From: a phage
Assembly: GCA_014686905.1 (NCBI GenBank)
Contig: GCA_014686905.1_4093.1
Length of the DNA stretch: 64,000 nt
Strand: one strand, 5' to 3'
Shown piece after piece: positions 25,381-40,025 of this stretch. Position 1 is the stretch's first letter; each line of letters starts with the position of its first letter. Below the pieces are notes generated by a model. It ran no database searches. It worked only from the letters and a program-made list of their open reading frames with translations, and had not been told where the DNA came from. A program made the translations under genes and the position numbers.

Positions 25381-26457
25381 TTAAACACAAGTAGACAGGG
25401 GAAGCTCCTAGTGAACAACCTTTATGTACAGGCGAATTGTTAAAATTCAGCCTGGACAAATGCGATCACTAGGATTCTCCCCAGGCTAAACCCCGTAATC
25501 ATAGGTAGTCATAAGTAATCATATATAAACATTTATATGAGCACCGTAGAATCACAGAATGATTATATATGATTCAGTACTGATTAGTATAGACAAGAAT
25601 GCTCAAGAATGCACGGGAAGGATTCAGTACTGATATGCCACTAAGTAGGCAGAGGAAGTCTGCCGTACTTTTTAGTTTCCAAGCTCCTTTTCCATTTTTC
25701 AAATTACATCAAATGTAATCAAAAGTAATCACGCAATGATTAGTACTGAATTATTACTTTCACCTTAATTTCAATTACCCCTTTACCCTTCGGGGTAAAA
25801 TTCAATTACCCCTTGAGGCTCCAGCAAAAAGTTGGTTAGTACTCCATCCTAAATCTCGATCCTAAAAATTTTGGAGTACCTATGAAATAAAAGTTGGATC
25901 TTCGAAAGTTGAAATTTACGTTGGGACGTTTATGATTTGTGGGATATAATGATGTTTGTAGTCGGGTAGTTCTCAAGAATATCAGTACTGAATAATGAAA
26001 GAAAGCTATTGACATTATGATTCAGTACTGTATAATGTTCTACATAGAGAGATGAGTTGCTGCGAACAATTCATTTACTCTATCTCCTGTCGTGAGACAG
26101 TACAGAAAAGATAGTTCCTCCTGTGGTGGTACATCTTTTTGAACCTCATATGAAAATCGTAATAACAGTACTGATATTAACAGAATGGTGTCAGTACTGA
26201 TTTTAATCTAAAGCATTATGCCACCAGCTTGTGCTGGTGGATTCCCTCTAACAGTATTCAGTACTACATGATGGTCTTCATCCTCCTAGGGTAACATAGT
26301 GAGGGCTATGATGGCAGTACTGAATACTCCCTTTCAAAAGATAGATCTATGGTATAGTACTGACGGATTTTGGGTGTAGTTACCCTGGATGGATTTTGGG
26401 CGTAGATATGTCTAGCCCTCCAGAAGTCTGGAAGTAAAGATGGCTATCCATCTAGAC

Positions 26458-26520
26458 GGCTAAACGGCTAGATGGCTGGATGGCTAGACGTTTGGACGGC
26501 TAAACGGCTAGATGGTTACA
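26458..26520. repeat. short tandem repeat unit ACGGCTAAACGGCTAGATGG (x2, with related GGCTGGATGGCTAGACG between)
   Basis: Direct reading of 26440-26545. Confidence 0.55.
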
Positions 26521-27161
26521 CGTCTGGAAGTATAGACGGCTAAATCAAAATTTTATTTTGTTTTTCCAATAGTTCCCCTACCGCGTGGGGATAGTTTCCC
26601 CGCAGTATCTGGCGTTAGATTTTTCTGAATCTGGAATCATTATCTTATAAACTGGGGGCAATGTCAACGACCTGGACGGATATTTTTAAAAATTTTTTCA
26701 GTACTGAATTTTGGGCGTAACTATGCACCCGGTGGGCTTGAGTCTTTCTCGACTTGATGGAACTATTATACAGTACTGGAAAAATAAAGCAATACCCTGG
26801 ATGAAAAAAGTTTTAATTAATTTGCTTGCCATCCTGGGCCGGACTATGGTACTATATTTCAGTACTGAGAAAGTGCGTTTACCTGCTAGGGTGCGGGAGT
26901 GTATCCTTTTTTTATATCTTGAATTTTGGACGGATCTTCCCACCCCCTGGGGTATCCGCTTTCTCGCGTCTATGTAGTAATTATACGCTTTTTCAGGATC
27001 AAGTCAATACCTAAAAACAAAATAATTGAAAATAATTTAACGCGTTTAAACGGCCCGTAACGCCCTGGAATGATTAGAATGGTGCAAATGTATAGCTTAG
27101 GTGTATTAATGCGTTAGAATGCGTCTGAGGCCGTTTTATGGGGTGTAGTAGTGATTTGGTT

Positions 27162-27252
27162 GATTCAGTACTGAATAATAGTACTCCTATATAGAAAGAT
27201 AGTTCCCCTGGATTGATTCAGTACTGAATAATAGTACTCCTATATAGAAAGA
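27162..27252. repeat. 38-bp direct repeat GATTCAGTACTGAATAATAGTACTCCTATATAGAAAGA (x2, 15-bp spacer)
   Basis: Identical copies at 27162-27199 and 27215-27252. Confidence 0.7.
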
Positions 27253-27283
27253 AAACTATTTTAAAAGTATTTGTAGAAAGTAC

Positions 27284-27311
27284 TTGCACCGTACTGATAA
27301 AAGCGTATAAT
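27284..27311 (+). promoter_or_regulatory. sigma70-like early-type promoter (TTGCAC, 16-bp spacer, TATAAT), representative of about 35 similar promoters in 27.3-45 kb
   Basis: TACTTGCA(A/C)...GCGTATAATGTTTTACATC recurs before most small genes in this region. Confidence 0.6.
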
Positions 27312-27325
27312 GTTTTACATCGAGA

Positions 27326-27342
27326 GCGGGAACACTTCCCGC
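27326..27342 (+). promoter_or_regulatory. conserved 5' leader stem-loop (GCGGGAA-CAC-TTCCCGC), representative of about 25 instances
   Basis: Stem-loop sits a few nt after the predicted start site (...TTTTACATC) and 10-20 nt before the SD; stem sequence varies between copies with compensatory changes. Confidence 0.55.
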
Positions 27343-27366
27343 TACACTTTAAGAGAGATTAATACG

Positions 27367-27729
27367 ATGGCAACTCAAATCACCAAAATTATTGCTAACC
27401 TGGTTAACTTCCGCGACGAGATGAAAGATCTTCCGGCGGCGACGGTTAAAACTCACATTGACGCATACCGCGAACTGATTAAAATGCTGCCGCTTAAGCG
27501 TGAACAATACGCCGCTACCGTGATGCTTGATGCGATGATCCATAAGATGATCGCCAGTGATTTGACGATGGTTTATCAGTATATGGGCGAAAATTTCGCG
27601 GTGTGTAGTAAGCCAGTACCAGGGATGGCAACAACTGAGGAATTGCACGGCTTAAACTTAAAACAAGATGCATGGGATAATATGCCTCGTTTCCTGGTAT
27701 GGGCTGACAGTGGCAAAATTTACAAATAA
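27367..27729 (+). CDS. hypothetical early protein
   Basis: Start moved to MATQITKI after SD AGAGAG (track ORF began inside promoter/leader). Confidence 0.6.
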   Translation: MATQITKIIANLVNFRDEMKDLPAATVKTHIDAYRELIKMLPLKREQYAATVMLDAMIHKMIASDLTMVYQYMGENFAVCSKPVPGMATTEELHGLNLKQDAWDNMPRFLVWADSGKIYK

Positions 27730-27824
27730 GTTTAATAAAGTACTTGCAAACTATGTTTAATGGCGTATAATGTTTTACATCAGGTGGGGAATAGTTCCCC
27801 ACTATATAAGAGGATTAAAAAAAA

Positions 27825-28064
27825 ATGGCTAAATCAAAAATGTTCTTAGGTCACAAAAACAAAACTCATTGGAATGTAAGCCTGTGGATTAATAACGATG
27901 AGGGATTGTATCGGTTGGCCCTGGACTTTATTGCCGCCAATACTAATCGCAATGATGCGGCCCGTCATATGATGTTATTTTTAGAACAGACTGGACAAGA
28001 TAAAACACCGGACGGATTCAAATATAGCACTACTGCGATCCGTGCGGCGATGGTTGGAATGTAA
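27825..28064 (+). CDS. hypothetical early protein
   Basis: Promoter plus leader hairpin GGTGGGGAATAGTTCCCCACT upstream; SD AGAGGA. Confidence 0.6.
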   Translation: MAKSKMFLGHKNKTHWNVSLWINNDEGLYRLALDFIAANTNRNDAARHMMLFLEQTGQDKTPDGFKYSTTAIRAAMVGM

Positions 28065-28150
28065 TAGAATTTATTTAAAGTACTATCATTTTTTTGCGAT
28101 AGTACTTTATAATAGTGTTTTATTCATACACCAACGATAAGGGCAACAGC

Positions 28151-28417
28151 ATGAATATTAAGTATTTTGCGACGCGTGAACAAGCTCGGATCGCCGCACG
28201 CCAGGACGGGGCAACGTTTAAAGATATGGGAGCGGGATCGGCAAGTGGTGAACGTTGGGCCATTGTAAAGCGTAGTACGGCCAGATCATTACAGTACTGG
28301 TTAGCGGCCTTAAAAAGTCCCGATAGTGTATCGCGTCGAGTGGTAGAAATAAAGCTCGACCGAAAGGGCAACCGCGTGACCGTGTACCGTACTAAAAAGA
28401 TTGCAGTACTTGAATAA
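28151..28417 (+). CDS. hypothetical early protein; paralog of 39568-39963
   Basis: MNIKYFATREQARIAARQDGATFKDMG...DRKGNRVTVYRTKK parallels MITKFYATREAARIVAREEGAAFKDMG...DRKGNRVTVYSKRR. Confidence 0.6.
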   Translation: MNIKYFATREQARIAARQDGATFKDMGAGSASGERWAIVKRSTARSLQYWLAALKSPDSVSRRVVEIKLDRKGNRVTVYRTKKIAVLE

Positions 28418-28504
28418 AAAGTACTTGCAAACTATGTTTAAAGGCGTATAATGTTTTACATCGAGAGCGGGAACTCTTCCCGCCTATAACCTGGAGTAAT
28501 AAAA

Positions 28505-28735
28505 ATGACTAATATGTATATGACTGAAGTTAAAACCGTAAAAGATACTACCACGAATAAAACTACTTACTTACAGCGGATCTGTGGTGTATGGCAACGT
28601 ATCAGCAAATCAAAGTACTTTAAATTAACATCATATGCAAACCGTTCTGATTCATTCAGTACTGAAATAAAAGGTAATAAAGTACACCAATACGGCACTT
28701 ATTATTATTACAGCCTGGACGCGATTGCAGTATAA
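28505..28735 (+). CDS. hypothetical early protein
   Basis: Promoter plus leader hairpin GCGGGAACTCTTCCCGCC upstream; SD GGAG. Confidence 0.55.
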   Translation: MTNMYMTEVKTVKDTTTNKTTYLQRICGVWQRISKSKYFKLTSYANRSDSFSTEIKGNKVHQYGTYYYYSLDAIAV

Positions 28736-28984
28736 GCAGTTTACAAATCTTTACAATTGCCGGTATTGACTTATTTTGTCAGTACTGGCATAATGTATTC
28801 ATTGGCAGATAAGCCGTAGCCCATAGGGTGCGGGAGTGTATCTATAGAAAAATTAGTTTAGTATAGTTACAATTGTGCACCCGGTGGGTTAGCTGTTGTC
28901 ATGGGGTATATTATGCCAGTACTTGATAATGCTGTCAATACTTTTTTTTACTATCCAGTACAGAAAACTATTTTTAAAAAGTAC

Positions 28985-29012
28985 TTGCAAACTATGTTTA
29001 AAGGCGTATAAT
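28985..29012 (+). promoter_or_regulatory. early-type promoter upstream of structured leader element
   Basis: TTGCAA, 16-bp spacer, TATAAT. Confidence 0.55.
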
Positions 29013-29018
29013 GTTTTA

Positions 29019-29096
29019 CATCAGGACGGGGAACGAAATAAGTAACTTCCCGTTAAGTAGCCCAGGAGTAAGGCACACGAAAAACTCCCCTGATAA
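29019..29096 (+). ncRNA. candidate small structured RNA / leader element between tandem promoters (copy 1)
   Basis: About 78 nt starting CAGGACGGGGAACG..., internal complementarity ACGGGGAA/TTCCCGT; near-identical copy at 38373-38450; no ORF. Confidence 0.3.
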
Positions 29097-29162
29097 AATA
29101 GTTTGACAAATGTTTTTAAAAGCGTATAATACTTACATCAACTACTGAATGAGGGTTATAAA

Positions 29163-29774
29163 ATGAAAACTATCACTACTACTACTTTCGTTATGGATTT
29201 TTCTGAATTGAACGCAGAACAAAAAACGTCAGCTATCGAACTGGTTCGGGAACGTGAAAAAAACTCAAACGACAATTATTTTTCTGAAAGTGAAATTGAA
29301 TACTATAAAGAAACAGTACTACCGGAATATGGCATTAATGACGCTGAAATACAATTCAGTGGTTTTTGGTCCCAGGGTGACGGTGCATCAATCAGTACTG
29401 ACCACGTTGACGCAGTGAAGTTTTTACGCAAGGTTAGAGCGTTAACTAAGTATCGCTCAATCCGTCACCTGCTGAATGAAGATGATTTGGCGATGAGTGT
29501 AAAGCGTTCTCACTCCCACTACTCGCATGAGAATACTGTAAGCGGGTACATTGAATCGGCTTACACTGATTTAACCGCAAAACAAGAAACGTTAGTTAAT
29601 GAGCTTGAGGAACTACTCACTGATACTATTCGTGAATTGTCCCGTAAGTTGTACCGTGATTTAGAGAATGCATATGAGGATCAATTCACTACTGAAAACA
29701 TTACGGCACTGATTGAGGGTAACGAATATCAATTCAATGTTATTGATGGCGTAGTAGAATCAATCGAATATTAA
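29163..29774 (+). CDS. hypothetical acidic protein
   Basis: 203-aa ORF; SD GAGGG; second promoter TTGACA...TATAAT at about 29103-29130. Confidence 0.65.
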   Translation: MKTITTTTFVMDFSELNAEQKTSAIELVREREKNSNDNYFSESEIEYYKETVLPEYGINDAEIQFSGFWSQGDGASISTDHVDAVKFLRKVRALTKYRSIRHLLNEDDLAMSVKRSHSHYSHENTVSGYIESAYTDLTAKQETLVNELEELLTDTIRELSRKLYRDLENAYEDQFTTENITALIEGNEYQFNVIDGVVESIEY

Positions 29775-29866
29775 TTCAAAAAGTACTGGACACTAAGCAA
29801 TAAAGGCGTATAATACTTTATATCGAGAGCGGGAATAGTTCCCGCTACTAATGAGGAATACTACAA

Positions 29867-30031
29867 ATGAATACTTTTACCTTCGCTCAATTGAACGCCC
29901 TGGATGTATTGTCTGATGCTTTGCGGGATGCAACTGAAAGCGGTTTATTTGACAATGTTGACATTCACCCTGATGTAATTAATAATTTTTGTGATGCTAT
30001 CGCAGAAGTACTGGAAGATCTAAAAAAATAA
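29867..30031 (+). CDS. hypothetical small protein (54 aa)
   Basis: Promoter plus leader hairpin GCGGGAATAGTTCCCGC then SD GAGGAA; hand-translated. Confidence 0.45.
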   Translation: MNTFTFAQLNALDVLSDALRDATESGLFDNVDIHPDVINNFCDAIAEVLEDLKK

Positions 30032-30119
30032 TAGAAAGTACTTGCAATTAGTTTTTAGTACTGTATAATAGTTTACATAGAGGGGAGAAATGGTTCTCCC
30101 TGGTAATGAGGAAAATAAA

Positions 30120-30341
30120 ATGGCTAATATCACTACTCTTTCTCAACTGGAAGCACTGGTTAAATCTATGCGGGAACATGCAGACAATATCGGCGTAAAA
30201 GATCCAGCCGTTTGCTTCTGCGACGAAATGAATGATGATACACTGGTAATAGCAGAAGTACAAGATATTTCTAACTATTCATCGCGTTACACTGGCGGCG
30301 TAGCAAATAAAGGTGACTTCTGTTTATACCTTACCAAATAA
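30120..30341 (+). CDS. hypothetical early protein
   Basis: Start moved to MANITTLSQ after SD GAGGAA; leader hairpin upstream. Confidence 0.55.
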   Translation: MANITTLSQLEALVKSMREHADNIGVKDPAVCFCDEMNDDTLVIAEVQDISNYSSRYTGGVANKGDFCLYLTK

Positions 30342-30346
30342 CAACG

Positions 30347-30376
30347 CGGGGAGATAATAACTCCCCGTTACTTTTT
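30347..30376 (+). terminator. intrinsic terminator-like hairpin
   Basis: CGGGGAG-ATAATAA-CTCCCCG followed by T-rich tract. Confidence 0.5.
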
Positions 30377-30585
30377 CAGTACTGAATCATTTAATAGACG
30401 GATCTCGGCACCCTGTGGGTTAGTGACTGTATCGTCTTTATGTAGTAATTATGCCAGTACTGGATGCAGTTGTCAACAATTATTTTTCAAATACTTTTTA
30501 TTAAAATACTTGCTATTAGTTTTTAAACGCGTATAATGTTTTGCATAGGGGGAGCGGTTCCCCCTGGTAACTAAGGAATAAGAAA

Positions 30586-30819
30586 ATGCTTGAACAAATC
30601 AAATCAACGTCTGCTAATGTAACGGGAACGGTATCACACTTTATTGGTGATGAATCGCGGGGCGTTCCCTATTGTGCTGTACATGTAAACACTGAGGGTA
30701 ACTACTGGTTTACGGTTTACGGATCATATTCATTTGGACGGCCAGGGCATCAAAAAATTCTGGATAAAGTACAACCAACGGGTAAAAATATCACTGCCGA
30801 AATGTTTTATAAAAACTAA
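30586..30819 (+). CDS. hypothetical early protein
   Basis: Promoter, leader hairpin GGGGGAGCGGTTCCCCC, SD AAGGAA. Confidence 0.6.
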   Translation: MLEQIKSTSANVTGTVSHFIGDESRGVPYCAVHVNTEGNYWFTVYGSYSFGRPGHQKILDKVQPTGKNITAEMFYKN

Positions 30820-30906
30820 TAAAATACTTGATAATAGTTTTTAGTACTGTATAATATTTTACATAGCACGGGGGAGCGGTTCCCCCTGGTAACTAAGGAT
30901 AATCAA

Positions 30907-31206
30907 ATGAAAATTGCAATCATCGCCCTGGCTTTATCTGTTTCCTCTTTCTCTGTTAATGCGTCGTTAGATGTACCTAGTGAAAAATTCATTCAGTGCA
31001 CCGTAGCGATGACCGATGAAAGTACTGGCGAGATTGTTTTAAAGGATTTAGAGATCCAGCCAGAAGCATTTAAAAACGGCCCGTTCCATGAAGAAGACGA
31101 AAACGGTAGCACAACAATTTATTATGATGCAAGTACTAAACGCGGTTCGGTCACTGTAATGGATACAGAGAAAGTAACACACACAGGAGTAATTAACTGT
31201 TTATAA
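30907..31206 (+). CDS. secreted/periplasmic small protein (signal peptide)
   Basis: N-terminus MKIAIIALALSVSSFSVNA-SLD has n/h/c regions and AxA-like cleavage site. Confidence 0.6.
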   Translation: MKIAIIALALSVSSFSVNASLDVPSEKFIQCTVAMTDESTGEIVLKDLEIQPEAFKNGPFHEEDENGSTTIYYDASTKRGSVTVMDTEKVTHTGVINCL

Positions 31207-31212
31207 ATCACT

Positions 31213-31240
31213 AGCCCACTCATACAGTGGGCTTTTTTAT
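31213..31240 (+). terminator. intrinsic terminator
   Basis: AGCCCACT-CATAC-AGTGGGCT followed by TTTTTT. Confidence 0.7.
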
Positions 31241-31434
31241 TTTTGTAGTACTGCATACTTTGAAAATAGTTTTAAGAAAGTAGTTGACATTACCGCAGAA
31301 AAGCGTAGAATGTATTACATCAAGACGGGGAGCACTAAGTAGACCGCCAGTAAGTCGAACGAAAAACTGGACACGTCGAGAAAACTTTGATACACTATCT
31401 AACGTAAACTAAACTTTAATTGAGGAATTATATA

Positions 31435-31917
31435 ATGGCTAATGTAAAATCATTCATCAAAGCACTGGTAGCAAATGAAACTAACGTAGCGGCAGAGATC
31501 CTGGCAGAACTGGATAACGATACCATGAAAGCAGTACGCAACAATTTTAACATTGCGTACAGTGAAGCTAAAGAACTGCAAGCCAAAAAGGTAGCAGAAC
31601 TGGAAGAACAGAAAAAAGCCCGTGAAGCAGAACTACAAGCAACAATTGAAAGTATCCAGTCGGCGGTGTCTGGATTGGATCTGGAAGTGGTTGTTGAAAT
31701 GGCACATAAAGCCCTGGCGGTTAAGTACGGTGAAGATAAGCCGGAATCTAAGCCTAAAAAATGGATTCAGGAACGCGTAGCGGTAGTACTTGATAACGGT
31801 GAAGAACATTTGATTCCTGTACGCGGTAACTGCATTGCGGTAGTACTGGACGCTATCAAAGAAAGCGGTATGACTCGCGAGGAATGGATCGAAGCTCATC
31901 GCAAAGTTGAAGCATAA
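31435..31917 (+). CDS. hypothetical protein (Lys/Glu/Ala-rich, probably helical)
   Basis: Start moved to MANVKSF after SD GAGGAA; long 5' leader. Confidence 0.6.
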   Translation: MANVKSFIKALVANETNVAAEILAELDNDTMKAVRNNFNIAYSEAKELQAKKVAELEEQKKAREAELQATIESIQSAVSGLDLEVVVEMAHKALAVKYGEDKPESKPKKWIQERVAVVLDNGEEHLIPVRGNCIAVVLDAIKESGMTREEWIEAHRKVEA

Positions 31918-31937
31918 CAATTAAAGTACTGAATCAA

Positions 31938-31966
31938 TAGCCCACCTTAAACAGTGGGCTTTTTTG
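31938..31966 (+). terminator. intrinsic terminator
   Basis: AGCCCACC-TTAAA-CAGTGGGCT followed by TTTTTT. Confidence 0.65.
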
Positions 31967-32201
31967 TGTCTATAGTATTCCAGTCCACTAGCACCGCCTA
32001 GAATCGATTCTAACGCATTAAACTGATTATCTGATACATCGCCCTAGCTGGTGGCGTTAAGGTCGTTAGAAAGCGATTGAGAGTGTTTAAAGTATTTTGC
32101 AAAAAGTAATAAAAAGTACTTGCATGATTAAGAGATTAGCGTATAATGTTTTACATCGAAAGGGGAAACGGTTCTCCTTCCAAATCAAAGGAATCAAAAC
32201 A

Positions 32202-32429
32202 ATGGCTATTATCATTACTCGCGTATCTGGTACTACTGGCAATTCTTCTACTGTTGCAGTCATTACTAACAAGGCAGGTGCGGAATTGCAAAATGCAATG
32301 AATACCTGGGCCGTTAATGAGTTCGGTCAGTGGGCAAGTGTAGCATACATTGAAACCTATCAAGTGCCGACCATTAGTTTAACGGATCTTGGTGTGGAAC
32401 GTATCCTTTGCTTGGATGAATTAAATTAA
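32202..32429 (+). CDS. hypothetical early protein
   Basis: Start moved to MAIIITRVSG after SD AAGGAA; promoter plus leader hairpin upstream. Confidence 0.55.
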   Translation: MAIIITRVSGTTGNSSTVAVITNKAGAELQNAMNTWAVNEFGQWASVAYIETYQVPTISLTDLGVERILCLDELN

Positions 32430-32514
32430 AAAAGTACTTGCAAAGTAAATCGAATAAAGTATAATACATTACATCAAGGGGAGAAATGATTCTCCCCACT
32501 ACAAGGAAACTAAT

Positions 32515-32658
32515 ATGAAAACTTGTCAATGTGGTAAAAAATCTATTACTGGTTTAAAGCGGGGCGTTGCTCTTTGCCAGTACCATTATAATTTACAAGT
32601 ATGGGGTAAAGAATGGGCCGACCAGGTGGAAGCAATTAAGAAAGCAAAAAGTAAGTAA
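32515..32658 (+). CDS. small Cys-containing protein (47 aa)
   Basis: Promoter plus leader hairpin GGGGAGAAATGATTCTCCCC; SD AAGGAA; hand-translated. Confidence 0.4.
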   Translation: MKTCQCGKKSITGLKRGVALCQYHYNLQVWGKEWADQVEAIKKAKSK

Positions 32659-32670
32659 AAATATTATCAC

Positions 32671-32708
32671 AGTACTATTGACATAGTTTGATAGTACTGG
32701 CATAATAG
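32671..32708 (+). promoter_or_regulatory. promoter module class 2 with flanking inverted repeat (AGTACTAT-TGACATAGTTTG-ATAGTACT, CATAAT), copy 1 of 3
   Basis: TTGACA, 17-bp spacer, CATAAT; near-identical modules at 35408-35446 and 43114-43150. Confidence 0.55.
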
Positions 32709-32747
32709 ATTTTATCAAGACAACATATTAATTTAAGGAATACTAAA

Positions 32748-33071
32748 ATGGCTAAAACTATCATTAACACCGTTTCCCTGGCTGCAATCCGTGCAATCAA
32801 TGTTGACGGTAAACGTTGGACTGATTCATATGGCAATACTTATCATTCTTGTCATGTAAGCGTCGAACTGGATAACGGTTTGAATGTTCTGGCGGTTGAA
32901 TCATTTACTTATGGCTATGAAGATGCATATCAACAAACGGCGTTAGATCTATTAAAGGAATCAGTAGACGGGCTTAATACTGATGAAACCTCCCTTACTC
33001 GTTTGTGCAATGATCTTAATATCCCGTTGCATTGTACTGTACAGAATGTTAAACGCAAAAAAGATCTTTAA
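32748..33071 (+). CDS. hypothetical protein; paralog of 39149-39472
   Basis: Shared motifs RWTDSxGNTYHSC, TFTYGY, VKRKKD. Confidence 0.65.
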   Translation: MAKTIINTVSLAAIRAINVDGKRWTDSYGNTYHSCHVSVELDNGLNVLAVESFTYGYEDAYQQTALDLLKESVDGLNTDETSLTRLCNDLNIPLHCTVQNVKRKKDL

Positions 33072-33151
33072 TTAGCTTTACTTTATGCAGATACTTTGAT
33101 ATAGTGTCTGCATAGGGGAAAGAAATTAAATTAACTTAAGAGGATCGTATA

Positions 33152-33421
33152 ATGAAAAATATCAGTACTTTAATCGATGCAGGTACACATGTTCGGCGGT
33201 CTATGGTTGCAACCAGTACTACAAAACAAGTAGCGAGCGGTTATCTTGTATTTGTGCACGATGGTAAACTCCTGGAACGTTCAATCAATTTTGATGTTAA
33301 AAACAATTGCCGTTTTATTATCTTTAAGCGTGAACAATATAAAATTGATTTACCAGCAAAGCCCATTAGCGGGGCGTACAACGTGCAATCATTGTTTGAG
33401 CGTCAACCTTACACCTATTAA
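33152..33421 (+). CDS. hypothetical early protein
   Basis: SD AAGAGGA upstream. Confidence 0.55.
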   Translation: MKNISTLIDAGTHVRRSMVATSTTKQVASGYLVFVHDGKLLERSINFDVKNNCRFIIFKREQYKIDLPAKPISGAYNVQSLFERQPYTY

Positions 33422-33472
33422 TCAAAACATCGTTAGCGGTCGATTTAGGCCGCTTGTATTGGGGATTATACC

Positions 33473-33643
33473 ATGAACGTTAATCAAGTACTGAATGAGA
33501 TCGAAAGCATCATTAAACCAATGAAACGCATTGATGCTATGTTAACACCGGAAGAATGCCGCCTTTATGAGCGTTACAGTGTGGAACAAGCCCAGGAAAT
33601 GGCCCGTATCCGTCCGGTTGCCAGTACTGATAAGGCGGCGTAA
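33473..33643 (+). CDS. hypothetical small protein (56 aa)
   Basis: Hand-translated; stop overlaps next start (TAATATG). Confidence 0.45.
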   Translation: MNVNQVLNEIESIIKPMKRIDAMLTPEECRLYERYSVEQAQEMARIRPVASTDKAA

Positions 33644-33644
33644 T

Positions 33645-33854
33645 ATGCTTACTGTACAGGATAAGATCGACATCTTAAAGGTTAATATGTATGTGATTGA
33701 TGCCGTACCTGGTAAAGTATTTGCATACGATGATTCTAATCGCAGTCCGTTTTATTGCAGTCATGTAGTTGGATACGTGCCGTTGGCGTATGTTATAGAA
33801 AGAGTGGTTGATGCAGCATACAAACATTTTTTAGAAAATAATACTTGCAATTAG
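33645..33854 (+). CDS. hypothetical small protein
   Basis: Start moved to MLTVQDKIDIL; translationally coupled to upstream ORF. Confidence 0.5.
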   Translation: MLTVQDKIDILKVNMYVIDAVPGKVFAYDDSNRSPFYCSHVVGYVPLAYVIERVVDAAYKHFLENNTCN

Positions 33855-33924
33855 TTTTCAGTACTGTATAATGATTTACATCGAGAGCGGGAATAGTTCC
33901 CGCCTCACTTTTAAGGAATATGAA

Positions 33925-34071
33925 ATGAAAGCATCAAAAAAGAGTAATACTAAGAAAGCATGTTCACCTTTCGCTGGGGTATTCCCTTTACGTTTCGTTG
34001 ATGAAGTGGTTTCCTACCCGCCTGGCCTTACTCCTGAGATGGTAGAAAGTTTGCGTAAATCTAAAAAATAG
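33925..34071 (+). CDS. hypothetical small basic protein (48 aa)
   Basis: Start moved to MKASKKSN after leader hairpin and SD AAGGAA. Confidence 0.45.
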   Translation: MKASKKSNTKKACSPFAGVFPLRFVDEVVSYPPGLTPEMVESLRKSKK

Positions 34072-34152
34072 TACTTGCAATTAGTTTTTAAACGCGTATA
34101 ATGTTTTACATGAAGGGGAGAAATGATTCTCCCCAATAACAGGAGAAACAAA

Positions 34153-34305
34153 ATGAAACAATATAATGCTCGGTTTGATGTTACTATCGGTAACGGCAAA
34201 GGTCAATTCTCTTTCAGTACTCGCAAAAGTTATACAGAAAACTTCCTGCGTAATTGTGCACTGACCGCCGCTCAAATTAAACATTATTTTCAGGCTAAAA
34301 AATGA
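34153..34305 (+). CDS. hypothetical small protein (50 aa)
   Basis: Start moved to MKQYNARFD after SD AGGAGA; leader hairpin upstream. Confidence 0.45.
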   Translation: MKQYNARFDVTIGNGKGQFSFSTRKSYTENFLRNCALTAAQIKHYFQAKK

Positions 34306-34391
34306 AATCATTTGCTTACTATAGTTCTGCGGTGATCGGTGCATTGATCGCGGCGTTGTTAGTAACCTATCTATTCTTTATGGTGATTTAA
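34302..34391 (+). CDS. tiny membrane peptide (29 aa)
   Basis: ATGA overlap with upstream stop; single hydrophobic helix. Confidence 0.35.
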   Translation: MKSFAYYSSAVIGALIAALLVTYLFFMVI

Positions 34392-34535
34392 ATGAATCCA
34401 ACAGGCTTAAATTATAAAAGTTGTTCGGCGTTTACGAAAGCAAATAAAGCGAATGCACGTAAAGCGAAAGTACAGGAGTACATCAAGCAAGGCATGACGC
34501 GAAAGGCGGCGATTCTAAAAGCTAAAAATAAATGA
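34392..34535 (+). CDS. small basic protein (47 aa)
   Basis: Abuts previous stop; Lys/Ala-rich. Confidence 0.4.
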   Translation: MNPTGLNYKSCSAFTKANKANARKAKVQEYIKQGMTRKAAILKAKNK

Positions 34536-34537
34536 AA

Positions 34538-34575
34538 AAAGTGGTTGACTCCGGTCAGCCATTTTGCTATTATAT
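34538..34575 (+). terminator. composite hairpin terminator plus promoter (TGGTTGAC-TCCG-GTCAGCCA, TTTTGC, TATTAT)
   Basis: Same architecture as 1157-1204; recurs at 38211, 41480, 43738. Confidence 0.55.
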
Positions 34576-34599
34576 ATTCATTGAGAGATAGCTCACTAG

Positions 34600-34624
34600 C
34601 CCACAGGGTGCATAAGTGTATCTA
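34600..34624 (+). promoter_or_regulatory. conserved intergenic motif CCCACAGGGTGCATAAGTGTATCT
   Basis: Near-identical motif at 38269-38292, 41542-41565, 43797-43820; related copies near 36270 and 28810; reverse-orientation core near 30410 and 26727. Confidence 0.5.
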
Positions 34625-34745
34625 TTATATAAGTATTGAGTACTGAAAACTATTTTTAAAAAGTACTTGCAAACTATCTCAATAAGCGTATAATGTTTTA
34701 CATCGAAAGGGGAAACGGTTTCCCCTGGTAATAAGGAAACAAATC

Positions 34746-35087
34746 ATGACTATCTCAATTGCTCAATCTAACTTTGAAAATGAAATCATCGCCCAGGCAC
34801 TGCGTTTAAATGATGGTCGGGCCGAAATTAATTACGGTTTCAATTCAGGCGGTTGCGAAAACTATCAGTACTTTGTAACGGCTGATGGCGGTGTCCTGGG
34901 TATCAATACAGTTATTGTAAACATCCAAAAAATTAATTTCAATGATCCAGACGATAGCCAGTTTTACATCACTGGCGTAGACGTGAACTATGAGGATGAC
35001 TCACTAACTGATGATCACACTGGCGAGCGGTTAGAAAGTGCATACGGTGAAGATGATTATCAGTCCGGTCCAGAAGATTTCGAATAA
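34746..35087 (+). CDS. hypothetical acidic protein
   Basis: Promoter plus leader hairpin AGGGGAAACGGTTTCCCCT; SD AAGGAAAC. Confidence 0.6.
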   Translation: MTISIAQSNFENEIIAQALRLNDGRAEINYGFNSGGCENYQYFVTADGGVLGINTVIVNIQKINFNDPDDSQFYITGVDVNYEDDSLTDDHTGERLESAYGEDDYQSGPEDFE

Positions 35088-35182
35088 TATAAAAAATAGT
35101 TTGACAATAGATTATAGTACTGTATAATAGTTTACATCAAGGGGAGAAAAACTTCTCCCCACTAACAGAGAGAGAAAACAAA

Positions 35183-35395
35183 ATGGCTAATATCCGGTCG
35201 AAATTAAAAAATGCAAAACAAGTTTTATTTTCAGATCATGAATACTTTAATAAAGATATTACAGGAGTTACAAGTATCAAGGAAGTAAAAGAAAAAACCG
35301 GCGTTTTGTGTGATGTGCGATTAGTTGGAACATTTGGGAATAACGTGCTATATCGCTGCGGTGATTACAATTTTACACTGACTATCATTAACTAA
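35183..35395 (+). CDS. hypothetical early protein
   Basis: TTGACA promoter, leader hairpin GGGGAGAAAAACTTCTCCCC, SD AGAGAGAGAA. Confidence 0.55.
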   Translation: MANIRSKLKNAKQVLFSDHEYFNKDITGVTSIKEVKEKTGVLCDVRLVGTFGNNVLYRCGDYNFTLTIIN

Positions 35396-35407
35396 AAATA
35401 TTATCAC

Positions 35408-35446
35408 AGTACTATTGACATAGTTTGATAGTACTGACATAATAAC
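35408..35446 (+). promoter_or_regulatory. promoter module class 2 with flanking inverted repeat, copy 2 of 3
   Basis: AGTACTATTGACATAGTTTGATAGTACTGACATAATAAC. Confidence 0.55.
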
Positions 35447-35478
35447 TTTTATCAACTACACTACTAAGGAATTAAAAA

Positions 35479-35658
35479 ATGGCTATCATCGCAAAAACTG
35501 AAATCGTTGGTCTGGATTCTATCATCATGACGTTTGAAGATCAAAAAGGTATGTATGTAGTTTCCTATGGTGATTATGTTCGGGAGTATGAAACGGTAGA
35601 CGAAGCCTTTGAAAGTTATATTCGCCAGGTGAATAAAGCATACGATGACTACCGCTAA
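35479..35658 (+). CDS. hypothetical small protein (59 aa)
   Basis: SD AAGGAA; hand-translated MAIIAKTEIVGLDS... Confidence 0.45.
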   Translation: MAIIAKTEIVGLDSIIMTFEDQKGMYVVSYGDYVREYETVDEAFESYIRQVNKAYDDYR

Positions 35659-35757
35659 AATATATTACCAGTACTATTAAATCTATTGACAACGTTTGAT
35701 AGTACTGTATAATAAGTTTTATAAACAGTAGTTAACTTAACCTAAGAGAGAAACAAA

Positions 35758-35901
35758 ATGATCGCACTGGATTCATTCATCGACGCAGTACTGGCAAAAA
35801 CTGGCGAGGATCTGACCGCAGAACAATACGCGATGATCGAGCAATGTCAGCAAAACGGTAAATCGGTGAAAGATACTGTTAAGATTATCCGCAAGATGTA
35901 A
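35758..35901 (+). CDS. hypothetical small protein (47 aa)
   Basis: SD AAGAGAGAAAC; followed by hairpin. Confidence 0.45.
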   Translation: MIALDSFIDAVLAKTGEDLTAEQYAMIEQCQQNGKSVKDTVKIIRKM

Positions 35902-35907
35902 TATTAT

Positions 35908-35936
35908 AGCCCACTGGTTAACGCTGGTGGGCTTTA
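35908..35936 (+). terminator. terminator-like hairpin
   Basis: AGCCCAC-TGGTTAACGCTG-GTGGGCT, weak T tract. Confidence 0.45.
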
Positions 35937-36006
35937 ATCATTTACCCTATACAATGCCAGTACTAAACCGTTTATCTCATTAGAATGCGTTACAGGACGT
36001 TTAACA

Positions 36007-36204
36007 ATGATTAGCATGAAATCAGTACAAAAACAAATAGAAACATTATCAAAAATTAAACGTAAACAATACTCCTTAGAATATACAATCAATGGTAACT
36101 ATCATCTAATGAAAGAAAATAATTTTATAGTCATTGATGAATCATTGCAAATCATTAGTATAGTACTGAAAGCATTAATCAATGACAGAAAAAAATTAAA
36201 ATAA
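36007..36204 (+). CDS. hypothetical small protein
   Basis: 65-aa ORF; weak SD. Confidence 0.45.
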   Translation: MISMKSVQKQIETLSKIKRKQYSLEYTINGNYHLMKENNFIVIDESLQIISIVLKALINDRKKLK

Positions 36205-36295
36205 TTGTTGACATACAATGCCAGTACTGGCATAATACTTACATCAAGACGAGAACGTCACCAACCCATAGGGTGCACAAATGTAACTATATAAT

Positions 36296-36375
36296 ATCGA
36301 TCAATAAATGATCAAAAAAGTACTGGATCAATTTAGCATAAGGCGTATAATTCTGATCAATTCTTGATCAAAGGC
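36296..36375. repeat. cluster of five GATCAA (three as TGATCAA) repeats within 73 bp, overlapping a TATAAT box
   Basis: GATCAA at 36299, 36310, 36326, 36355, 36366. Confidence 0.55.
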
Positions 36376-36532
36376 AATAAACGTAGTTGAAATTATATAG
36401 AAAGTACAAAGGCGTTACCATTCGTGGTAATGCTGGGGAATATGTAGTATCATACGGTTTGAATAAAATCAGTACTAGTAGTATAATCGTAGCATTGCAG
36501 TACTATAGTATTTTTATAATGAGGTTAAAATA

Positions 36533-36790
36533 ATGGCTGTAGGATTTGCGAAGGACGGGGCCGAACAAGACGAGATTAACGCAGTGATTCAGGCCGCCGT
36601 AAACCACGCTAGAAAGCAAATTAACGCACAAATAGAATCACTGGTACATTGCCTCGACTGCGGCGATATAATCCCTGAGAAACGACGCCAGGCCGTTAAG
36701 GGATGTAAGTACTGCATAACTTGCCAGGAGGATCATGATAGTACTTTTAAACGTCCCCCGCGTAATTGTTGGCATAGATCTATGAGATAA
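36533..36790 (+). CDS. DksA/TraR-family C4 zinc-finger protein
   Basis: CLDCGDIIPEKRRQAVKGCKYCITC: two CxxC pairs with typical spacing, small size. Confidence 0.65.
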   Translation: MAVGFAKDGAEQDEINAVIQAAVNHARKQINAQIESLVHCLDCGDIIPEKRRQAVKGCKYCITCQEDHDSTFKRPPRNCWHRSMR

Positions 36791-36853
36791 AAAGTATTGA
36801 CAGTACTGAAAGATAGTGTATAATATTTTATATCTTAACTGAGGATTGAAATC

Positions 36854-37210
36854 ATGGGAATACAACATATCACGCGTACTACTGACAATGGCGAGATCAC
36901 TGGCTATCAAGTACAGGGCAAAGTAGCACAATTGCAGTACTGGTTTGTTAAACGTGGAATCATTGCACCGGATCTTGATTATGACCGTGTAGCGTTTATT
37001 GATTCTCTTTATGTTGATCCTGATAGTCGGGGCAATGGTGAAGGTAACGAATTAATGAATGCCTTTATTGATGCCGCCGATGATTCAGATTGTATCATTT
37101 TAGAATGCGATACAGGAGAAGATAACGCCTTCAATCTTAAAGAATGGTACGAAGGTTTCGGATTCGAGGTACTGATCGATAGTGAATATCCTATCATGAT
37201 TTTATCATAG
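36854..37210 (+). CDS. putative GNAT-type acetyltransferase-like protein
   Basis: LYVDPDSRGNGEGNELMNAF resembles the GNAT acetyl-CoA-binding loop; weak. Confidence 0.4.
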   Translation: MGIQHITRTTDNGEITGYQVQGKVAQLQYWFVKRGIIAPDLDYDRVAFIDSLYVDPDSRGNGEGNELMNAFIDAADDSDCIILECDTGEDNAFNLKEWYEGFGFEVLIDSEYPIMILS

Positions 37211-37288
37211 TACTTGCATTTAGTTTTCAGTACTGTTATAGTACTTACATCAAGGGGAAACATCTTCCCCTACTAAGAGGAAATAAAA

Positions 37289-37477
37289 ATGGAAAACTTA
37301 TCAAGTATTTTAGTACAAGATGATTTCGGTAATCCTGGAAGTGCTATCATTGTTCGGGGTAATAAAGCAACGTTTGTTATTGCTGGTGGACCTGTACAGC
37401 GTAGCATTAAAAATAATGCTGTTACCATTAATAATGTACGCTATCGCTTAGATAAAGAATTGATTCATAAACTTTAA
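37289..37477 (+). CDS. hypothetical early protein
   Basis: Promoter, leader hairpin GGGGAAACATCTTCCCC, SD AGAGGAAA. Confidence 0.55.
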   Translation: MENLSSILVQDDFGNPGSAIIVRGNKATFVIAGGPVQRSIKNNAVTINNVRYRLDKELIHKL

Positions 37478-37561
37478 AAAGTATTTGACAATAGATTATA
37501 GTACTGTATAATAAGTTACATGAAGGGGTGAAATGATTCTCCCCACTAAGAGGAAAGAAAA

Positions 37562-37774
37562 ATGCAAGGTCAACTAATCGTTCGTAAATGGTCTGATACT
37601 AACGAAAAACCGTGGGATGTACAATACATCGGACCGGATGGGGTATCACGTTATCAGCCTGGCGTAACGCATAGTACTGAGCAATTCGCAAACGCTCACC
37701 GCGAACGCCTGTTAGAATCCATGAAACAGGGATTCTGTGAAAAATTCATTCAAGATCATTGGCTGAAAGATTAA
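37562..37774 (+). CDS. hypothetical early protein
   Basis: TTGACA promoter, leader hairpin, SD AGAGGAAAG. Confidence 0.55.
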   Translation: MQGQLIVRKWSDTNEKPWDVQYIGPDGVSRYQPGVTHSTEQFANAHRERLLESMKQGFCEKFIQDHWLKD

Positions 37775-37791
37775 TATAAGGAGTACAGCTT

Positions 37792-37884
37792 ATGCAAATG
37801 AATCCGATGATTATTGTTTTAGCTGTACTTATGATCATTCATGCAATAGTAGAAGTATTAACGCAATCAGGAGTAATAAAATGA
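37792..37884 (+). CDS. tiny membrane peptide (30 aa)
   Basis: SD AAGGAG; single hydrophobic helix. Confidence 0.35.
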   Translation: MQMNPMIIVLAVLMIIHAIVEVLTQSGVIK

Positions 37885-38054
37885 TTCAAGTAGAATTATC
37901 AGTACTGAAAGATCTGTTTTATCGGTTAGGTACTACTGGCGAGTATCCTAAAAGTGATACCGCAAAACTTTTTGTATCACTCGACTTATGGCAACGCGAA
38001 CAATTAGTAATGTCCTGGCGTAAAGGTAAAGCAGATAGCGAGGTGAAAGCATGA
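37881..38054 (+). CDS. hypothetical small protein (57 aa)
   Basis: ATGA overlap with upstream peptide. Confidence 0.45.
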   Translation: MIQVELSVLKDLFYRLGTTGEYPKSDTAKLFVSLDLWQREQLVMSWRKGKADSEVKA

Positions 38055-38200
38055 AAGAATTCTTATTCGAAGTAGTGTTTCAAGGTGTCGGTAGTAACCA
38101 ACTGATTCGCTCAAGTGGTTACAATGTTAACCAGGCATGGAATAACATTAAACAAATGTACCCGAACGCTATCACCTATCGCAACCCGAAACAAGTTTAA
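38051..38200 (+). CDS. hypothetical small protein (49 aa)
   Basis: ATGA overlap; followed by composite terminator element. Confidence 0.45.
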   Translation: MKEFLFEVVFQGVGSNQLIRSSGYNVNQAWNNIKQMYPNAITYRNPKQV

Positions 38201-38210
38201 AAATAATTGA

Positions 38211-38250
38211 AAAAGGGATTGACTCCGGTCAGTCCCTTTGCTATTATATA
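38211..38250 (+). terminator. composite hairpin terminator plus promoter (GGGATTGAC-TCCG-GTCAGTCCC, TATTAT)
   Basis: Same architecture as 1157-1204. Confidence 0.55.
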
Positions 38251-38372
38251 CGCATAGAAACAAATCAGCCCACAGGGTGCATAAATGTATCTATTGTTTG
38301 CTGGTGGCTAGTACTGAAAACTATTTTTAAAAAAGTACTTGCATTGTACTTAGAATCAAGTATAATGTTTTA

Positions 38373-38450
38373 CATCAGGACGGGGAACGAAACAAGTAAC
38401 CCCGTTAAGTAGTCCAGGAGTAAGACATAAGAAAACCTCCCCTGATAAAA
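38373..38450 (+). ncRNA. candidate small structured RNA / leader element between tandem promoters (copy 2)
   Basis: Near-identical to 29019-29096; bracketed by two promoters. Confidence 0.3.
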
Positions 38451-38515
38451 TAGTTTGACAATAGAAAGTAAACGAGTATAATACTTACATCAACCACTGA
38501 TAAGGAAACATTAAA

Positions 38516-38791
38516 ATGCGGATTCTACTGACAGCTAACGAAATCGAACAAGTACTGACTACTAACCTGGAAGACTGGAAACGTGAAGCAGATATCCAGG
38601 CGGTTCAACGGCTTAACGATGAGTTAACGCCGGATGACTTAAGCAAGATTGTAGATCCTCAATTCTACGAAGATATCCACGACACCGCGTTAAGCGTCGA
38701 GGATGTACTAGATAAGCACTACATTGATATTGATTTGCAGGTTTACGGTCGTAAAAACTTTATCACTATTCACGACATTTACAATAATTAA
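38516..38791 (+). CDS. hypothetical acidic protein
   Basis: SD AAGGAAAC; 91-aa ORF. Confidence 0.6.
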   Translation: MRILLTANEIEQVLTTNLEDWKREADIQAVQRLNDELTPDDLSKIVDPQFYEDIHDTALSVEDVLDKHYIDIDLQVYGRKNFITIHDIYNN

Positions 38792-38877
38792 GTATTGACA
38801 AAGTATCTTAGTACTGTATAATAGTTTACATCGAGAGGGGGAATGGTTCCCCTCCTAACAAAGAGAGAGAAATAAAA

Positions 38878-39060
38878 ATGGCTAAATGCACTATCTGTAA
38901 GAAAGAAATCGTATTAGTTCCAAGTGCCCGTGAACGTGCCGCTCGGTTCGGTGGCAAACCGTCAGACTATACAAAAATGTTTACTGTCCATGCAGCTTGC
39001 CAGGTAGCAAAACGTTCACAAGAAAGCGTAGAATTAATGCGTAAACTTTCCAAAAAATAA
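38878..39060 (+). CDS. hypothetical small basic protein
   Basis: TTGACA promoter, leader hairpin GAGGGGGAATGGTTCCCCTCC, SD AGAGAGAGA. Confidence 0.55.
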   Translation: MAKCTICKKEIVLVPSARERAARFGGKPSDYTKMFTVHAACQVAKRSQESVELMRKLSKK

Positions 39061-39148
39061 GTATTGACAAAGTATCTTAGTACTGTATAATAGTTTACAT
39101 CAAGTGAGGGGAAACGGTTCCCCTCCTAACAAAGAGAGAGAAATAAAA

Positions 39149-39472
39149 ATGGCTATGATCCTTGCCCAGAAAGTAGAACTGAAAATTGTAACCTCCTTTG
39201 ACATTAAAGTTAATCGGTGGACTGATTCACACGGCAATACTTACCACTCTTGCTACGTGTCTGCGTTAATTGGTGATCGTTGGGAAGACCTGGGACATGA
39301 AACCTTTACATACGGTTACGGCACACAAGGCGAATACACGGGCTTGGAGATCATTAAAGAAACCGTTATAGGTTTCAACCCGAAAGAAAAAGTTATTCAC
39401 CGCATCGAAAAAGAGATTAACAAAGAAATAACAGTTCGATACAACGATGTAAAACGTAAGAAAGACATGTAA
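39149..39472 (+). CDS. hypothetical protein; paralog of 32748-33071
   Basis: Start moved to MAMILAQK; shared RWTDSHGNTYHSC...TFTYGY...VKRKKD; promoter plus leader duplicated from the 38878 unit. Confidence 0.65.
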   Translation: MAMILAQKVELKIVTSFDIKVNRWTDSHGNTYHSCYVSALIGDRWEDLGHETFTYGYGTQGEYTGLEIIKETVIGFNPKEKVIHRIEKEINKEITVRYNDVKRKKDM

Positions 39473-39567
39473 TAGAATCCATTTAAAGTACTATTTGACA
39501 TTGCCCAGATAGTACTTTATAATAGACTCTAACTTGTAGTACTAACTCAACTAATAGGATGTATACC

Positions 39568-39963
39568 ATGATTACTAAATTCTACGCTACCCGTGAAGCT
39601 GCCCGTATTGTTGCACGCGAGGAAGGAGCAGCATTTAAAGACATGGGCAAAGATGCACCGAAAGGTCAACGCTGGGCCGTACAGTTCAAAGAAATCTCTG
39701 ATATCGTGAATTCACCGGAGCCAGTACTAACAGCAGCAGAACTAAAACGAGCGGATTTACTGGCGGCAGTACTTAACGCACAAGATGAATTTATCGCTGA
39801 TTCTGATATCAAAGTACAGACAAACCATACCGCTTGGACTCACGCGGATCACCTGGCAAACCTTAAGCGTCCAAGTGAACTGGTACGCAACCAGAAAGAG
39901 ATCCGACACGACCGTAAGGGTAATCGTGTAACAGTATACAGTAAACGCCGCCAGGTTATCTAA
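39568..39963 (+). CDS. hypothetical protein; paralog of 28151-28417
   Basis: MITKFYATREAARIV...DRKGNRVTVYSKRR. Confidence 0.6.
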   Translation: MITKFYATREAARIVAREEGAAFKDMGKDAPKGQRWAVQFKEISDIVNSPEPVLTAAELKRADLLAAVLNAQDEFIADSDIKVQTNHTAWTHADHLANLKRPSELVRNQKEIRHDRKGNRVTVYSKRRQVI

Positions 39964-40010: not shown

Positions 40011-40025
40011 ATAGGATAAACTAAA

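Follow-up and report, generated by a model that had tools for sequence, protein, structure and literature searches.

A covarying, pseudoknotted early-leader RNA element in Asteriusvirus-type jumbo coliphages and its probable homolog between promoters A1 and A2 of phage T7

The comparisons reported here suggest that the early region of an Asteriusvirus-type jumbo coliphage harbors three copies of a non-coding element whose RNA structure is maintained by selection, and it is very probable, on sequence evidence alone, that this structure is homologous to the spacer between early promoters A1 and A2 of phage T7. Considered as a whole, with identity and mechanism taken together, the best explanation found is that of a conserved, pseudoknotted early-leader RNA acting on the host polymerase, a reading to which we would grant even chances. 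The initial annotation had put forward a structured non-coding RNA, small or cis-regulatory, transcribed from a promoter of its own, and this proposal is supported by compensatory changes in every helix and by the persistence of the structure in unrelated phage lineages; the annotation had overlooked the pseudoknot and how widely the element occurs, T7 included.

The window (the whole 64,000-nt stretch of phage DNA analyzed here) is of the Asteriusvirus type (PBECO4/121Q), and over 700 bases at the element it shares 97-99.6% identity with the PBECO4/121Q/G17 group of Escherichia jumbo phages, which have genomes of 350-380 kb. Between 26 and 45 kb the window contains an array of small genes on the + strand. 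A scan with the pattern TTG(ACA/CAA)-16/17-TATAAT-N5-ACAT identified 24 consensus early promoters in the window, of which about 19 are followed by a simple G-rich 5' stem-loop (e.g. GAGAGCGGGAA..UUCCCGC) and then by a Shine-Dalgarno sequence and ATG, and many of these early units are divided by terminator-like hairpins. Early cassettes from positions 26000-45000, consisting of small genes with their promoter and 5' stem-loop, recur in shuffled order and with 68-92% nucleotide identity in the rV5-like phages A73 and A7_1 and in the phi92-like phages muut and outra (L029-L032), a similarity which, as far as sequence can tell, points to three phage families drawing their early cassettes from one mobile pool. 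No tRNA or tmRNA genes were detected in the window by ARAGORN.

The three copies of the element all lie on the + strand; copies A and B are full length and copy C is shorter. The initial annotation had reported a duplicated element at 29019-29096 and 38373-38450, and both copies are present at these places: a 25-nt element pattern matches only at 29022 and 38376 in the window, with no matches in 100 shuffles. A covariance model of the core produces three strong matches in the 64 kb (29053-29092, 31335-31374 and 38405-38444; E about 1e-11, 51-54 bits), and the next-best match, at 14 bits (2742-2784 on the - strand), falls in what appears to be coding sequence, a designation with no ORF call behind it, and was dismissed as due to chance.

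Copy A (29020-29094; core model 54.1 bits) is preceded by a first promoter at 28985-29012 (promoter P1; -35 TTGCAA at 28985-28990, -10 TATAAT at 29007-29012), which has an A/T-rich, UP-like stretch upstream and a start site at about 29018-29020. The minimum free energy (MFE) fold of this copy is a three-way junction. Its helix P1 pairs AUCAGG (29020-25) with CCUGAU (29089-94), hairpin P2 occupies 29026-29053 and is followed by a joining strand J, UAAGUA, at 29054-59, the pseudoknot helix S1 pairs GCC (29060-62) with GGC (29072-74), and helix P3 pairs GGAG (29065-68) with CUCC (29085-88), with an A-rich loop at 29075-84. A second promoter, a perfect TTGACA-16-TATAAT at 29103-29130, drives the gene at 29163-29774 (203 aa, phrog_5162, unknown function, without a Pfam match). 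Copy B (38374-38446; 51.2 bits) has the same layout, with promoter P1 at 38339-38366 (TTGCAT at 38339-44, 16-nt spacer, TATAAT at 38361-66), helix P1 at 38374-79 and 38441-46, P2 at 38380-38405, UAAGUAG at 38406-12, S1 formed by GUC (38412-14) and GAC (38424-26), P3 by GGAG (38417-20) and CUCC (38437-40), and a second perfect TTGACA-16-TATAAT promoter at 38455-38482 that drives the gene at 38516-38791 (91 aa, phrog_14947). The claim that the element lies between a promoter of its own and a second complete promoter thus holds for copies A and B, in both of which it ends 8 nt ahead of the second promoter. A longer leader said to begin at 31320 is indeed related, and constitutes a true third copy, but it is a short form that lacks the P2 hairpin. 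This copy C (31324-31377; 51.7 bits) follows a TTGACA-16-TAGAAT promoter at 31284-31311 and comprises an outer helix of GACG (31324-27) and CGUC (31374-77), UAAGUAG at 31336-42, S1 formed by GAC (31342-44) and GUC (31354-56), and P3 formed by CCAG (31347-50) and CUGG (31367-70). Behind it come a degenerate promoter-like stretch, the gene at 31435-31917 (160 aa, phrog_27871, unknown function) and a terminator at 31939-31960.

Relative to its sigma70-type early start site, the element begins at +3 in copies A and B and at +7 in copy C. It contains no ORF, as had been noted, and a coding role can be ruled out, with stop codons and frame-breaking indels of 2-4 nt between copies disrupting all frames. 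The proteins encoded behind the three copies share no family, have no Pfam match and belong only to PHROGs of unknown function, and the upstream flanks of copies A and B show no homology beyond the promoter. No intrinsic terminator was found in the interval from the element to the promoter or gene that follows; hence, as transcribed, the element is the 5' end of a longer RNA. Tandem Repeats Finder reported no tandem repeat in 28700-29400, and the three copies lie 2-9 kb apart.

Other non-coding features were observed in the same region. A second repeated element, GCCCAYNGGGTGC-NNNANTGTATC, is present in seven copies, against 0.01 expected by chance, at 28819-28842, 34599-34622, 36264-36287, 38268-38291, 41541-41564 and 43796-43819 on the + strand and at 28866-28889 on the - strand, and copies of it are found ahead of the first promoter of both element copy A and element copy B, at a distance of 100-200 nt. 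A repeated 12-bp hairpin, AAAGGGATTGACTCCGGTCAGTCCCTTT, at 34538-34565, 38212-38239, 41480-41507 and 43740-43767 (with weaker instances at 1161 and 2575), is terminator-like and also carries a TTGACT -35 box with TATTAT 17 nt on, and may be a composite terminator/promoter of the PeSL kind. Upstream of copy A, positions 28736-28985 form an unusually long gene-free stretch (about 250 nt), which holds a TTGACT-17-CATAAT promoter-like site (28766-28794) and inverted GCCCAYNGGGTGC copies.

The core of the element spans 40 nt and can be written UAAGUAG-N-C-[stem]-UAAG-N'-C-NNANGAAAAN-[stem]. In window-type copies, single-sequence folding yields a three-way junction of P1 (AUCAGG/CCUGAU), the P2 hairpin and P3 (GGAG/CUCC). 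Two internal complementarities had been put forward in the initial annotation. The first holds, as ACGGGGAA and UUCCCGU form hairpin P2. The second survives in part: CCUGAU pairs with the 5' AUCAGG in the outer helix P1, and the pairing assigned to CAGGAG contributes the inner helix P3 only through GGAG/CUCC. The annotation had further proposed a covariance comparison of the copies and had taken the lack of a discrete transcript, with the element a mere leftover of a duplicated promoter-leader that shows no structural conservation, as grounds for rejection; this comparison supports P1, P3 and S1, and such a leftover is excluded. Across 29 distinct cores, 96% of the pair cells hold standard pairs, and the covariation score is 0.50, compared to 0.15±0.03 in shuffles, none of which (0/500) reaches 0.50; when the partners are slid out of register, pairing in the same alignment falls to 17-41%. 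S1 is a 3-bp pseudoknot in which G-N-C of GUAG-N-C pairs with G-N'-C of UAAG-N'-C, and its middle pair takes all four Watson-Crick forms (AU 17, UA 6, CG 4, GC 1, with one exception). An unbiased mutual-information scan ranked this S1 pair first and the P3 pairs next. P3 pairs switch between CG and GC and between UA and AU, giving the forms GGAG/CUCC, GGUG/CACC, CCAG/CUGG, GCCUG/CAGGC and GCUUG/CAAGC, and the outer helix, which RNAalifold independently predicts together with P3, is rebuilt from one lineage to another (AUCAGG/CCUGAU, GCGGC/GUCGC, CAACGAA/UUCGUUG and AUCGAA/UUCGGU, as well as five T7-type forms: GUCAA/UUGAC, GUCGGU/ACCGAC, GAUUAG/CUAAUC, GUCAUC/GAUGAC and GUGAA/UUCAC).

The remaining helix is variable. 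In the window copies it is a plain hairpin, P2, which survives sequence change, with a G.U pair in 121Q and other inner stems in two EJP2 copies. In T7-type sequences an extra helix, with forms that include CCGG/CCGG, CCAG/CUGG, CCAC/GUGG, CGGG/CCCG and GCUG/CGGC, encloses the 5' strand of the outer helix and thereby makes a second pseudoknot. Over the four helices of 20 T7-type sequences, 11 of 17 pairs are changed on both sides, versus 3.0±1.3 in shuffles. G.U pairs occur 11 times at one P3 position, in the 121Q P2 and in two further homologs (L079, L085), and since these would be C.A mismatches on the opposite strand, the structure is that of the + strand (sense) RNA. The unpaired UAAGUAG and UAAG and the A-rich strand (A-N-GAAAA), of which GAAAA lies in the strand crossing S1, are almost invariant. 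For most homologs the patterns used for retrieval fixed UAAGUAG, UAAG and GAAAA, so that their invariance is partly by construction; the unpaired core is kept, however, in seven homologs whose retrieval did not depend on the full pattern (BLAST found six and a relaxed pattern one) and in one found by the model only, with UGAGUAG, GAAGUAG and GAACAA as the only variants among them. The CMSTMSU copies were left out, as they come from an unverified record with homopolymer errors.

A search of related phages, also proposed in the initial annotation, recovered the element in 45 phage records (BLAST, 81-nt query). Most are Asteriusvirus, and eight belong to unrelated rV5-like or phi92-like phages of about 145 kb: the rV5-like (Vequintavirinae) carriers A73, W70, A7_1 and A5-4 and the phi92-like (Justusliebigvirus) carriers muut, outra and EmilieFrey, seven phages in all, with muut recorded twice. 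These carriers present the same promoter-element-promoter order with different genes behind it, and only muut has the gene found downstream of copy B, with 92% identity over 530 nt spanning element, promoter and gene. More distant copies were recovered by means of pattern scans made from the bases common to A, B and C, and are located in a 366-kb metagenomic phage (L046/L051), in three short contigs (L041, L064, L068) and in about 35 Autographiviridae contigs, including phiA1122 and T7. A 281-nt phiA1122 A1-A2 query spanning the T7-type element matched 523 phage records by BLAST, the weakest of which are the Asteriusvirus copy-C loci; the named hosts in the output summary of that search are all enterobacterial. 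Among the matches listed for a relaxed pattern scan of IMG/VR, most are due to chance, and at least one new true member (L119) emerged after filtering for S1 and P3. Two candidates with perfect pairing (L097, L135) were set aside, as they appear to be coding sequence.

Across carrier lineages the flanks are not alignable. All copies of the element are in the sense orientation and start 2-40 nt from the start site; the core motif is found as far as 55 nt in, and 0-20 nt separate the end of the element from the next -35 box. Behind the promoter-plus-element module, at least six genes without relation to one another are found, and all of them have a complete promoter of their own. We place a little short of even chances a broader reading, in which the binding is inferred: the element would be an undescribed class of phage RNA, found even in T7 and made first in infection, that specifically binds a conserved host machine or a defence protein, either as an RNA-only modifier of E. 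coli RNA polymerase unrelated to put or as an anti-defence decoy, and it would have passed horizontally between four or more phage groups that are not related to one another. In Asteriusvirus assemblies that apparently start at the genome end, copy A was observed about 3.4-3.8 kb from the left end; in vB_Ec-M-J (OQ718158, 3726-3806), the only record to annotate the direct terminal repeat, copy A lies inside that repeat. Copy A is thus near the presumed leading genome end, as is the A1-A3 region in T7.

In T7, the element is found at nt ~536-593, between early promoters A1 (start 498) and A2 (start 626), with the core at 551-587. Its first base is at +39, with a separate hairpin on the 5' side, and the -35 hexamer of A2 forms the 3' strand of its outer helix. 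In EcoDS1, the match likewise lies between the first two annotated host-RNAP promoters. RNase III cuts the T7 A1 leader off the mRNA at R0.3, so that in T7 the element is unlikely to influence how stable the downstream message is or how it is translated. The start of the T7 A1 transcript itself (L087, 498-535), AUCGAGAGGGAC..UCCC, was seen to resemble the 5' leader hairpins of the window, ACAUCGAGAG(C/G)GGGAA..UUCCC (leaders at 27320, 28461 and 38831), and a promoter-leader design may be common to the window and T7. Two of the short contigs present an additional signal: in L064 (5430-5500) and L068 (4150-4215), a consensus boxA (GCTCTTTAACAA or GCTCTTTAAAAA) is located 15-20 nt behind the element, and the order of element, boxA, conserved GU-rich GTGATAGTCCACC stretch and first gene is the layout of an rrn-like leader. 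In T7-like phages, boxA is found 150-430 nt downstream of the element, and near the window, rV5-like and phi92-like copies no boxA was found.

No catalogued RNA family was found to match the element. Rfam 15 yields no match at the gathering score anywhere in the 64-kb window, only noise of 8-14 bits around copy A at E<=10, and nothing relevant at E<=1 for six homologous loci that include T7-like ones. BLAST searches with the window and T7 versions gave no match in 5,426 complete E. coli genomes, and a BLAST search of PLSDB plasmids returned only noise at E=5. A strict pattern applied to one genome per species had a single match, in an archaeal MAG, with neither P3 pairing nor promoter context. 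BLAST is blind to similarity at the motif level, and the negative result for bacteria and plasmids is accordingly weak. A full-text search of the literature, including the literal DNA and RNA sequences of the T7 core, turned up no account of the motif, but older T7 papers available only by subscription were outside its scope. As the evidence stands, the element represents a new RNA family of an already known general type, the phage early-leader RNAs, and a prior mention cannot be excluded.

Each copy would then be a transcription unit that has no gene and specifies a compact, pseudoknotted RNA of 55-75 nt, and the RNA family would sit at the 5' end of sigma70-dependent early transcripts in phages of enterobacteria. 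In the fold shown by covariation, the outer helix P1 closes the element, the inner helix P3 stacks on P1, and S1 joins the strand ahead of P3 to the P3 loop. The host RNA polymerase would make this RNA from the first of the two tandem promoters within seconds of infection. Since the unpaired bases are near-invariant, we infer specific recognition of a host component conserved in enterobacteria, and the enterobacterial host is the only evident common partner of the carrier phages. As a tentative proposal, inferred by analogy, without experimental evidence and less likely than not, the RNA may act co-transcriptionally on its own elongation complex: it would fold upon leaving the polymerase and act on that same complex, in the manner of HK022 put or of a nut/rrn boxB-boxA leader, and polymerases from the first promoter would subsequently elongate, pause and terminate unlike those from the second. 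Such a role is favored by the constant promoter-proximal sense position of the element and the absence of a terminator, and by its location 15-20 nt ahead of boxA in L064 and L068, which is the place of boxB in rrn leaders. The boxA found further downstream in T7-like phages and the precedent of put also speak for it. Several observations count against it. The window, rV5-like and phi92-like copies lack a nearby boxA, and neither fold nor sequence is related to put. With purified components, T7 transcription initiated at A1 ends at the early terminator TE, and this speaks against a strong antitermination of intrinsic terminators by RNA alone. Most copies, furthermore, are followed immediately by a complete promoter, so that the downstream gene is independent of polymerases from the first promoter, an arrangement that fits a stand-alone RNA at least as well, and the presence of three copies per genome is also compatible with a dosage effect.

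That alternative, in which the first promoter serves solely to produce a stand-alone early RNA acting in trans as a decoy, sponge or inhibitor of a host protein, is in our judgment unlikely, action on the polymerase being placed slightly ahead of it. The RNA could be released by processing, at R0.3 by RNase III in T7 and at an A/U-rich stretch behind the outer helix in the window, and a defence nuclease that binds RNA, a type III toxin for example, would be one candidate target. The portable promoter-plus-element module, found before at least six unrelated genes with their own promoters, would be expected of such an RNA, as would its three copies per Asteriusvirus genome, its sporadic occurrence in rV5-like and phi92-like phages (eight records) and its movement with the shuffled pool of early-gene cassettes. 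The near-invariance of the unpaired bases and the outer helix, which from transcript position +3 buries the 5' end as in stable RNAs, point the same way, as does the cleavage that parts the T7 A1 leader from the mRNA. Phage pseudo-ToxI provides a precedent for RNA mimicry (PMC3475682), and there is a general likeness to type III antitoxin pseudoknots with their conserved adenosine stretch (PMC12283969). Nevertheless, the element has neither a terminator nor a defined 3' end, no discrete transcript has been shown, there is no tandem repeat and no adjoining toxin-like gene, and no bacterial or plasmid counterpart was found by BLAST or by the strict pattern in one genome per species, although this last negative is weak.

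The conserved structure admits other readings that we consider considerably less probable. A small H-type pseudoknot with an A-rich third strand, highly conserved unpaired bases and covariation would also suit a ligand-sensing, riboswitch-like aptamer, in which pseudoknot and A-rich strand bind a small molecule and control the first-promoter transcript; aptamers of the preQ1-I and SAM-II classes are built along the same general lines. We deem it very improbable: no expression platform is apparent, as there is no terminator and no conserved sequestering of a ribosome-binding site (the Shine-Dalgarno-like AGGAG of the window P3 is replaced by GCCUG or GCCAG in other copies), the genes that follow are unrelated and have no known function, and no Rfam aptamer matches even at E<=10. 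A generic 5' structure without a specific partner, stabilizing the early mRNA or preventing backtracking of the first polymerase upon its encounter with one bound to the second promoter, is nearly as improbable. It would agree with the simple G-rich 5' stem-loops that follow about 19 of the 24 early promoters of the window and with the termination of the element 0-20 nt before the next -35 box, but any stable hairpin would suffice for such a purpose, yet the pseudoknot and some 20 unpaired bases are kept from jumbo phages to T7, and in T7 the element, at +39 behind a separate hairpin and in a leader that RNase III removes, would leave the mRNAs unprotected. Least credible of all is a neutral promoter-leader cassette, left behind after deletion of a gene by PeSL-type recombination that joins repeated early promoters, or a signal acting at the DNA level. 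The early region is built from repeated promoter/stem-loop cassettes that are shuffled between phage families, and T4-type phages are documented to lose sequence between tandem cassettes by PeSL-mediated deletion (PMC4122927). A remnant, however, would decay rather than covary, and this reading is therefore contradicted by the compensatory changes in all helices, the strand-specific G.U pairs and the retention of the core where the flanks fail to align.

If the proposed identity is true, the T7 A1 early leader, which is among the most-used DNA in molecular biology, encodes an overlooked, conserved double-pseudoknot RNA, and 350-kb jumbo coliphages carry three copies of the same RNA. Small non-coding cassettes would also be shown to be mobile among Autographiviridae, Asteriusvirus, Vequintavirinae and Stephanstirmvirinae. 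Depending on its mode of action, the RNA would be the second case, with a structure of its own, in which bacterial RNA polymerase is controlled by RNA alone, or else a new counter-defence based on RNA, and its presence in T7 makes it directly testable with simple genetics and in vitro transcription.

Compared with known systems, the element shares with preQ1-I and SAM-II aptamers a similar size, a pseudoknot topology and an A-rich strand, but it lacks an Rfam match, an expression platform and an association with metabolic genes; it differs from Hfq-type trans-acting sRNAs in that the unit has no Rho-independent terminator with a U-tail of its own. With type III antitoxins (ToxI, CptI, TenpI) and phage pseudo-ToxI it has in common a short H-type pseudoknot with a conserved A-stretch, which is a resemblance only, and a strong promoter, and a phage-encoded mimic is a known form of counter-defence; unlike these antitoxins, it has no tandem direct repeats of 34-45 nt, no adjoining ToxN/AbiQ-type toxin gene and no bacterial homolog that could be found. 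The early region of the window, with its 24 promoters, most of them bearing 5' stem-loops, and with cassettes shared with other phages, fits the PeSL-type design of T4-type phages, in which repeated early promoter/stem-loop units flank small variable ORFs and mediate shuffling, but PeSLs are simple hairpins without conserved loops, whereas the element is a covarying pseudoknot also present in T7-group phages. The rrn and lambdoid nut leaders (boxB plus boxA) are approached by the L064, L068 and T7-like elements, which lie upstream of a consensus boxA in an untranslated early leader; the window, rV5-like and phi92-like copies have no boxA, and the element is far more elaborate and conserved than boxB. 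The put RNAs of HK022 (putL and putR) are cis-acting antiterminators that suppress termination and pausing by way of the beta' zinc-binding domain. HK022 put is an RNA of about 70 nt located just after PL, which binds the polymerase (PMC9378689). Run across the whole HK022 genome, the core model reached at most 10.3 bits (E 0.5), with no significant match, positions relative to PL and PR not being considered, and the two differ in fold, put consisting of two long stem-loops with a triplex and the element of a closed pseudoknot core. The likeness between them lies in a length of about 70 nt, a sense-strand position directly after a phage early sigma70 promoter, a multi-helix fold with tertiary contacts and a presumed independence from any phage protein, and the element, like put, would act on the polymerase that transcribes it.
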